From assembly GCF_003334315.1 (NCBI RefSeq), contig NZ_QOWR01000107.1: a stretch of 2,876 bases of DNA. One strand, written 5' to 3'. This document shows positions 2,208 through 2,876 of the stretch, one piece after another; within the stretch, counting starts at the first letter, position 1; each line of letters starts with the position of its first letter. Below the pieces are notes generated by a model. It saw only the letters and a program-made list of their open reading frames with translations, was not told the origin of the DNA and ran no database searches. The DNA comes from Escherichia coli (GTDB lineage Bacteria > Pseudomonadota > Gammaproteobacteria > Enterobacterales > Enterobacteriaceae). The position numbers and the translations under genes were made by a program.

Positions 2208-2876
2208 TTAATCATGATACGGTATGCATACTGAACTCAATCCCGGGACACTATTTCTGATAAAAATATATTCTCCTTTATTATTAAGCGCCTCAAATCG
2301 TCCATCAGGTGTTGCGAGATAAAATGCTTCAAGATTATTATCTTTACTTCTTACAAGATTTTTATCGCTACTTGAAAAAAATTCATCAACATAATCGCCA
2401 TGACTATCTGCACCGTGAGTATGATAAGCAGCAACTCTATCTATACCTGTGGGACATTTTCTTTTCAGAGGATATGACTCCTTTCTTAAATTATCAGTTT
2501 CTGCCTTAGATGCAAAATATTTTCCATTAGTATCTTTACAGACAATACCAGAGTATTCCATATCATTACATAGAGATCTATTCTGCGTTTCTTTCAAAGC
2601 ATCTAACGCAGCATCTGCAGTACTATCAAATTTACTTGGTCCTATTATACGTGAAAGAACACCACAAACTCCCCCCGTACATGCTCCAGATCTGGCATCA
2701 TCCCAAGTCTGCAATAATCCCATAGGGTCAATTTGTTGTAGTGGATTTAAAGGATACTGATATAAATTCCATCCCCCTTTCAACCCCATCGGGTCCTGAG
2801 TAATATACCGCCCCTGCAACGGATCGTAGTACCGGTGACGGTTATAGTACAGCCCTGATTCCTCATCATGCTGCTG
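2208..2876 (-). CDS. rhsD: Rhs-family polymorphic toxin, C-terminal portion only (5' end beyond the right window edge): end of conserved Rhs core plus variable C-terminal toxin domain
   Basis: Seen in sequence: the minus-strand frame is open from the window edge (2876) to a TAA at 2208..2210. The ORF-track start at 2819 is a TTG inside the conserved region, not the true start. Translating 2876 down to 2715 gives [54 protein letters not shown], the hallmark end of the Rhs core (YD-repeat tail with the PxxxxDPxGL motif; DPMGL at 2715..2729). The sequence after it is AT-rich and unrelated to the core. Symbol rests on recalled K-12 locus architecture, not a search; the Rhs call itself is firmer than the symbol. 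Confidence 0.9.
2211..2714 (-). other. Variable C-terminal toxin domain (Rhs-CT, ~168 aa) of the main Rhs protein; activity unknown
   Basis: Seen in sequence: starts immediately after DPMGL and has much lower GC than the core. It contains six Cys and an E...YHTH...FSSSD pattern. I tentatively recall a similar pattern from a Pfam domain of unknown function found at Rhs/YD-repeat C-termini (DUF4329); that is unverified. Established knowledge: Rhs proteins carry their toxin as the segment after the PxxxxDPxGL motif. Confidence 0.75.
2715..2876 (-). repeat. Rhs core 3'-end homology block, main-gene copy (truncated by window edge)
   Basis: Partner of 1519..1680; same evidence. Confidence 0.85.

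Follow-up and report, generated by a model that had tools for sequence, protein, structure and literature searches.

The C-terminal tip of the Escherichia coli Rhs protein RhsD (RhsD-CT) is best read as a disulfide-stabilised zinc amidohydrolase of the JAMM type that would act in the periplasm or envelope of the target cell and would be blocked by direct binding of the exported immunity protein YbbC, a reading to which we assign a probability of roughly 0.7. The rhsD-ybbC locus is already catalogued as a toxin-immunity locus, and the pairing of Tox-JAB-2 with Imm-NTF2-2 is also known. The compartment in which Tox-JAB-2 domains act is absent from the literature that was searched, and what the present analysis adds is a correction of the annotation from "RNase" to envelope-acting JAMM peptidase.

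In the mechanism proposed here, the tip would be released from the end of the Rhs protein after the DPxGL boundary and would act outside the target cytoplasm, in the periplasm or envelope, as a zinc-dependent amidohydrolase of the JAMM/MPN type (a peptidase or isopeptidase) that hydrolyses an amide bond of the envelope. Up to three disulfides would link its six cysteines, one of them a Cys59-Cys87 staple that spans an insert beside the active site. YbbC would be a periplasmic protein, in soluble form or held there by a lipid or membrane anchor, and would neutralise incoming toxin by binding it directly.

The rhsD-ybbC locus

The window, meaning the whole stretch of 2,876 nucleotides that was analysed, is the 3' end of an E. 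coli rhsD element on the minus strand, and annotated E. coli chromosomes match it at 99.9% identity. The end of the RhsD core (positions 2715..2876, minus strand; ORF translation and RefSeq rhsD) contains, just ahead of the tip, the DPxGL boundary, and the gene runs past the window. The toxin tip itself (2211..2714, minus strand; Tox-JAB-2/DUF4329) starts directly after the boundary motif DPMGL (within IDPMGL) and so has the C-terminal position, behind the Rhs core, that is characteristic of the DUF4329 family. Translation of the window bears out what the sequence-only reading had reported here, a tip of 168 residues with six cysteines. The rhsD stop codon and a 39-nucleotide spacer containing the ribosome-binding site of ybbC follow at 2169..2210 (minus strand; direct sequence reading), such that the ybbC start codon lies 39 nucleotides beyond the rhsD stop. 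The ybbC gene (1800..2168, minus strand) encodes an immunity protein of 122 residues, assigned to Imm-NTF2-2 by Pfam (PF15631) and to the YbbC/YhhH family by RefSeq. The GC content of the tip and of ybbC is 31-33%, as against 43-57% in core sequence, which is the classical contrast between a low-GC tip and a high-GC core in Rhs elements. The gene order in RefSeq is rhsD, ybbC, an incomplete RHS repeat-associated core protein, small hypothetical genes, and an IS3 element.

A JAMM/MPN domain at the tip of RhsD

The tip matches the Pfam family DUF4329 (PF14220) with an E value of 3.8e-37 over model positions 2-114 of 116. Zhang et al. (2012) defined this domain as Tox-JAB-2 ("DUF4329 in Pfam"), together with its partner "Imm-NTF2 family 2", gave its motif as E, H[ST]H, S, D, and predicted that it functions as a nuclease (PMC3482391); in later genome surveys DUF4329 tips are labelled "RNase". 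The rhsD-ybbC locus is a member of this system, having the same two Pfam families, the same motif, the same position at the C-terminus of an Rhs protein and the same downstream immunity family (PMC3482391). Comparison of the tip with Pfam and the PDB, which had been suggested from the sequence, succeeded with the first of these databases; among PDB chains, neither the sequence nor a profile of the tip found anything meaningful, the best match being a zinc-finger protein with an E value of 2. NCBIfam has no model that matches the tip or YbbC, and a word-indexed search with the tip returned E. coli fragments only. A search of the literature for experiments or assays on RhsD-CT, YbbC/YhhH or Tox-JAB domains found none.

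Relatives of the tip, 229 in number among 1.84 billion representative proteins, are mostly the C-termini of Rhs/YD proteins. Three short motifs of the tip contain the residues of interest: E53-Y54, Y97-H98-T99-H100 and F113-S114-S115-S116-D117. Of 115 aligned representatives, all have E53 (115/115), 114 have H98 and 114 have H100; S114 is found in 110/115 and D117 in 106/112. All five residues are invariant in a curated alignment of 53 diverse homologs. Judged by these alignments, E53, H98, H100, S114 and D117 are the JAMM motif E…HxH…SxxD, a predicted complete set of catalytic residues that is under strong selection. The residues of the zinc site of JAMM/MPN+ enzymes, E…HxHx(7)SxxD, are all present in the tip, in the expected order and, in the model, on the expected elements of secondary structure; the spacer between HxH and serine is 12-13 residues in RhsD and in 41/53 sequences of the curated alignment, as against 7 in canonical JAMM enzymes.

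The predicted structure of the tip (pLDDT 91.8, pTM 0.87) has the alpha+beta fold of the JAB/MPN (deaminase-like) type expected of DUF4329, with one strand ending in H98/H100 and the next helix starting with S114/D117, as in JAMM enzymes. The top figures among its fold relatives belong to Pyrococcus JAMM1 (8.3), AfJAMM (7.9) and the uncharacterised Desulfitobacterium protein DSY2949 (2kks; 7.7), followed by CBASS Cap3 (7.4), the AMSH-like Sst2 (7.2), RadC (7.1), Rpn11 (7.1) and BilC (6.7); cytidine deaminases, whose superfold is the same, rank lower. One stand-alone relative with a DUF4329 domain also matches Prok-JAB. The fold of the tip, as modelled, is JAMM/MPN. An earlier guess that the pattern E(Y)...YHTH...FSSSD could mark a metal-dependent hydrolase is thus upheld, the pattern being the invariant JAMM catalytic set within a predicted JAMM/MPN fold. 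The fold, which had not been assigned with confidence from the sequence, was published for Tox-JAB-2 in 2012 (PMC3482391).

Cysteines of the toxin domain

The six cysteines of the tip (positions 12, 17, 49, 59, 87 and 163) compare with about 1.9 expected in 168 residues at an assumed background of 1.15%, approximately three times the frequency typical of bacteria (rough Poisson P ~0.014), and none of them is among the JAMM metal ligands. Cys59 and Cys87 flank an insert of 27 residues between the strand of E53 and the strand of the HxH motif, a placement that would give the geometry expected of a loop-closing disulfide. In 116 aligned relatives, both cysteines are present in 54, neither in 47, Cys87 alone in 15, and Cys59 without Cys87 in none (Fisher P = 1e-19, a statistic that ignores kinship). 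Every member of an enterobacterial subgroup (41-51% identity) has C12, C17, C59 and C87, and 6/7 have C49. A C-terminal cysteine, 6-11 residues from the end, recurs in the tips of RhsD, RhsB-type proteins and two of the loci discussed below (L011 and L012). An even number of conserved, non-catalytic cysteines fits stabilisation by disulfides in an oxidising compartment. The co-occurrence of Cys59 with Cys87 and the retention of all six cysteines in the enterobacterial subgroup lend indirect support to the earlier proposal that the cysteine content of the tip reflects disulfide bonding.

The predicted export signal of YbbC

The match of YbbC to Imm-NTF2-2 (PF15631; E value 6.8e-26) covers residues 55-122 of the protein and the full model (1-68). 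Ahead of it, the N-terminus opens with a basic n-region (K2); residues 6-17 are hydrophobic and free of charge, and Cys18 and Asn19 follow. A Shine-Dalgarno sequence, AAGGAG, is located 6 nucleotides upstream of the ybbC ATG, so the hydrophobic N-terminal segment is very likely translated. In the structural model of YbbC, the folded core spans approximately residues 50-120 (pLDDT 84-93), residues 1-5 and 15-25 have pLDDT below 50, and residues 7-17 form an isolated helix; the low confidence and detachment of residues 1-25 indicate that this segment lies outside the folded core. Residues 1-25 of YbbC look like an export signal, and by a home-made rule together with the model YbbC has a Sec-type N-terminal export signal, its type left aside. 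Calls of signal peptides throughout this work are based on a rule of hydrophobicity and charge plus comparative data.

The sequence-only reading had described the start of YbbC as a signal or lipobox-like peptide, and the two halves of that description fared differently: export is supported across the Imm-NTF2-2 family (see below), and the case for lipidation is weak. The segment ILFAC18 matches a permissive, PROSITE-type lipobox rule and fails the strict core L-[ASTVI]-[GAS]-C because of the phenylalanine at -2, and there is an alternative site for signal peptidase I at VYG/SD, with the cut after residue 25 (here and below a slash marks the predicted cut). YhhH-type relatives, at about 50% identity, have isoleucine or threonine where YbbC has Cys18, and their N-termini are ordinary, type-I-like signal peptides of the form KK-hydrophobic-GWA/N (…CKKISIGNLAMASLFAITHNGWA/NGND…). 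A lipobox was found in only 1/23 further Imm-NTF2-2 members scanned. The asparagine at +2 after the lipobox cysteine is not the classical inner-membrane retention signal, which is aspartate, and was given no weight. On comparison of these sequences, export appears to be conserved in the YbbC/YhhH family and lipidation does not; lipidation of YbbC is doubtful. A lipoprotein form of YbbC as the main reading was rejected because Cys18 is not conserved in the relatives.

Predicted exported partners across the toxin family

N-termini were scored as signal-like if an uncharged window of 10 residues with a mean Kyte-Doolittle value of at least 2.0 started within the first 25 residues and was preceded by K or R. 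By this home-made rule, 22/26 Imm-NTF2-2 proteins are signal-like, and three of the four that are not have short or truncated-looking N-termini. The baseline is 10/93 among M-initiated DUF4329 proteins, and those ten are Sec-exported toxins or stand-alone secreted forms of DUF4329. The Imm-NTF2-2 proteins found by profile search came from Salmonella and Pseudocitrobacter and from metagenomes of freshwater, soil and marine origin. Thus, Imm-NTF2-2 is not restricted to E. coli. Zhang et al. (2012) listed the family as "E. coli only" and did not mention an export signal (PMC3482391), whereas here its members are more widely spread and almost always exported, as predicted by the rule.

The gene context of DUF4329 toxins was looked up for 12 proteins on unrelated contigs, with L003 (where the ORF after the toxin seems to be spurious) and L004 (which is cut off by the end of its contig) left out of the count. 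In 8/8 interpretable loci, the gene directly after the toxin encodes a predicted exported protein, and these proteins belong to at least four unrelated families. The same arrangement as in rhsD-ybbC, toxin followed by Imm-NTF2-2, is found in L005 (N-terminus of the partner MRRSAQLLVSLLLVLGQSVAPAVSSA/R), in L009 (MKRILMGIYLLFPICSVA/K, with the upstream ATG used as start), in L012 (MKVMIILMLSILPLLPSFSHG/E) and in L011; the last, like L010, is a Salmonella locus with a YhhH-type partner whose signal peptide has the KK-hydrophobic-GWA/N form of other YhhH-type relatives. In L002 the partner is a DUF6794 protein of 245 residues (VKFNFKSIILWSGMILLTNLALA/N), L006 (MRTPPALIFFVVVSSLLSSTSGA/H) and L008 (MGPRAALIALLVLGAAGAVVVGSPTKAVA/G) share a third family, and L007 has a fourth, with a lipobox-like N-terminus (MRTTSLIVVATAVALASQAC).

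That unrelated partner families of one toxin domain all have export signals is most simply explained if the toxin has to be met outside the cytoplasm. The signals in 22/26 Imm-NTF2-2 proteins and in the partners of all eight loci therefore support the original argument from an exported immunity protein to a toxin of the periplasm or envelope. The pattern extends to the sister clade of JAB-fold toxins, Tox-JAB-1 of Bacteroidetes Rhs proteins, whose partner Imm65 has a signal peptide and lipobox that parallel the N-terminus of YbbC; in the collection of Zhang et al. no other immunity protein is a lipoprotein (PMC3482391). Tox-JAB-1 differs from the RhsD tip in its Pfam family, its motif (NxxxE, HxH, S, D) and the fold of its immunity protein.

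As judged from these sequences, the most likely target of the RhsD tip is the cell envelope, and the "RNase" of current annotations is probably a misnomer. By a different explanation, which follows that label, the one current in the literature, the tip would be a JAB-fold nuclease or RNase that acts in the cytoplasm, similar to the nuclease role proposed for RadC, and the hydrophobic N-terminus of YbbC would be irrelevant or would serve as a membrane tether facing the cytoplasm. We consider a cytoplasmic nuclease unlikely.

Export of the partner would also be expected if the target were cytoplasmic and the toxin were intercepted in the periplasm, YbbC capturing it before it crossed the inner membrane or protecting producers that export it by the Sec pathway. 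Several family members are indeed Rhs/YD proteins with N-terminal Sec signals (P0117, P0142, P0152), implying passage of the toxin through the producer's periplasm, and with its cytoplasm shielded by the Rhs shell, as it could be, the producer would not need immunity protein there. Three points argue against such interception: the location of the immunity protein corresponds to the toxin's site of action in characterised T6SS pairs, such as that of VgrG2b; the stretch of RhsD between DPMGL and the catalytic domain contains no evident translocation domain, residues 1-30 of the tip being part of the same modelled unit as the catalytic domain (pLDDT ~80); and the conserved cysteine pairs suggest that the protein remains in the oxidising compartment where it folds. 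We rate interception slightly lower still than a cytoplasmic nuclease.

The main counter-evidence to a periplasmic site of action is a survey of Salmonella SPI-6 in which, according to SignalP 6.0, two Rhs proteins with DUF4329 have partners that lack a transmembrane segment or signal peptide; a CdiI domain is listed for these partners. One of the two toxins is unusually long, at 1,593 residues, and its last domain may be one other than DUF4329; this protein was not recovered by the word-indexed search with the RhsD tip. The Salmonella partners retrieved here (P0032, P0197 and P0198) are signal-like.

Comparison with known enzymes and candidate substrates

The best functional precedent for a RhsD-CT that acts in the envelope is VgrG2b, a metallopeptidase of the H2-T6SS of Pseudomonas aeruginosa, which is toxic only in the periplasm and whose immunity protein PA0261 fails without its signal peptide (PMC6899460). 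Members of that immunity family have type-I signals, are lipoproteins (in Enterobacteriaceae) or have a transmembrane anchor (PMC6899460), a variation that resembles the lipobox-like and type-I signals of YbbC and YhhH. VgrG2b differs in having a zincin fold with HExxH rather than a JAMM domain, a VgrG rather than an Rhs carrier, and an immunity protein of another fold. For RhsD and YbbC, the analysis shows the fold of the tip, its full set of catalytic residues and the export signals found throughout the partner families; we infer the compartment of action, the formation of disulfides, the peptidase chemistry and the mode of binding. The Tae/Tai pairs are T6SS peptidoglycan amidases, that is, hydrolases of envelope amide bonds, neutralised by exported immunity proteins. 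In both respects they are similar to the activity proposed for RhsD-CT; Tae enzymes differ in their papain-like or NlpC/P60 folds and Cys-His catalysis, and peptidoglycan is only a candidate substrate of RhsD-CT.

The JAMM/MPN+ metallo-isopeptidases, which include Rpn11, AMSH, BRCC36, archaeal JAMM1/AfJAMM, CBASS Cap3 and BilC, are cytoplasmic and cleave at the C-termini of ubiquitin-like proteins, whereas the RhsD tip is rich in cysteine and its family has exported partners; the groove for ubiquitin-like tails is reported not to be conserved (PMC3482391). Because the closest fold relatives of the tip cleave isopeptide bonds, the envelope analogues of such bonds are suggested as candidate substrates: peptidoglycan cross-links and other bonds of the peptidoglycan peptides, the γ-D-Glu-mDAP bond, and the isopeptide link between Lpp and peptidoglycan. 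The tip could equally well act on lipoproteins or other proteins of the envelope.

If the periplasmic reading is true, a widespread class of Rhs toxins will have to be re-annotated, JAMM chemistry will be seen to reach the cell envelope, and a new vulnerability of the envelope will have been identified; the presence of rhsD and ybbC in E. coli K-12 makes the reading cheap to test. A bolder version, which we put forward tentatively and hold to be considerably less probable than the main reading, is that Tox-JAB-2 domains are the first JAMM/MPN enzymes outside the cytoplasm, disulfide-stabilised isopeptidases that would be activated by the oxidising machinery of the target's own periplasm and would cut an isopeptide-type bond of the envelope. 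If they are indeed extracytoplasmic isopeptidases, the label of nuclease or RNase is wrong for both Tox-JAB clades.

Delivery, expression and distribution

The N-terminus of RhsD was examined for features of delivery, and contains DUF6531 (E value 6e-19) and a weakly matched PAAR motif (E value 0.14). No vgrG or other T6SS genes are present within 7 kb on either side of the locus. Delivery of the tip is presumably through a T6SS, an assumption made from knowledge of the family only; E. coli K-12, in which rhsD-ybbC is present, is known to have no T6SS.

The absence of delivery machinery within 7 kb, the Rhs fragments and IS3 element nearby, and the binding of H-NS and StpA over the ybbC-rhsH-ybbD region of K-12 are all compatible with the explanation that the rhsD tip and ybbC are decayed or silent relics in E. 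coli, so that the signal-like segment and the cysteines would have no present function. We think this improbable, about as much so as interception in the periplasm: the open reading frames are intact and the predicted catalytic set is complete; 1761/5426 complete E. coli genomes cover at least 80% of the window, in most cases with an identity of 95% or higher; and the toxin motif and the export signals of the partners are conserved throughout the family, which indicates purifying selection.

The DUF4329 class of Rhs proteins, for which an envelope-acting JAMM peptidase is proposed here, occurs in roughly one in three complete E. coli genomes; it has also been reported in more than 150 Salmonella serotypes. 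Phage-borne versions of Tox-JAB-2 were mentioned by Zhang et al. (PMC3482391). When 50,697 phage records were searched by tblastn, the domain had zero matches, and one prophage-like metagenome contig was found to carry a DUF4329 version.

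A second Rhs module downstream of ybbC

The gene for the immunity protein YbbC (minus strand) is followed on the same strand by an orphan Rhs module, a 236-aa ORF (1090-1800) whose start codon overlaps the ybbC stop codon (TAATG) and which RefSeq annotates as an incomplete pseudogene. It consists of the final ~95 residues of an Rhs core, ending in DPLGL, a form of the DPxGL core-tip boundary motif, and then a distinct tip of ~140 aa. The only Pfam match of this tip is a weak one to Serum amyloid A (E 0.005), and the same unexpected similarity has been noted for some Rhs tips in surveys of EHEC. 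The orphan tip shares its last 20 nt with an 86-aa ORF (849-1109, minus strand). The product of this ORF matches NCBIfam PRK14710 (E 5e-58), is strongly hydrophobic near its N-terminus, and is probably a membrane-anchored immunity protein of the orphan tip. Such a partner hints that the orphan toxin, like the RhsD tip, may act at the envelope.

Base composition and Rhs remnants

The GC content drops sharply from about 57% in the Rhs core (1500-1800 and 2715-2876) to 31-33% in the RhsD tip and ybbC (1800-2714). The ybbC-rhsH-ybbD region of E. coli K-12 is reported to be bound by H-NS/StpA and to lack transposon insertions (PMC9948719). Under laboratory conditions, the RhsD tip/ybbC module is probably silenced. 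At the start of the window, an annotated partial pseudogene (89-253, minus strand) lies beside the terminal part of an IS3 transposase gene (1-92). The pseudogene's ORF at 89-220, beginning MPQYGGPIVQGSAGVLIVAPT, is similar to the N-terminus of RhsD (MTQYGGPIVQGSAGVRIGAPTGVA) and is a 5' piece of an Rhs gene, which looks like a leftover of Rhs rearrangement.

DUF4329 domains and their partners in other bacteria

Several Rhs/YD proteins of other phyla that are tipped with DUF4329, the domain of the RhsD toxin tip, carry a Sec signal peptide at the N-terminus in place of a PAAR-like region (P0117, P0152 and P0142 on contigs L002, L003 and L004, respectively), one of them being 3,366 aa long with LRR and β-helix domains; thus, the toxin domain appears to be deployed by Sec-dependent routes as well. 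A stand-alone DUF4329 protein of 171 aa, encoded on a prophage-like marine contig (L013, 4001-4516) with genes for RecT and an excisionase-type HTH protein as neighbours, has a textbook lipobox (MKFIGILFFLLAGC) and an additional weak match to Prok-JAB, and is a predicted exported JAB protein without any toxin architecture around it. In one metagenome, DUF4329 toxins are followed by two exported proteins of ~117 aa (L006, 2223-2573; L008, 2428-2784), which are related to each other (containing LQALATALADFSAVLRQ and LQALATTLPDFRALLKK, respectively), have no match in Pfam, and may form a new family of Tox-JAB-2 immunity proteins.
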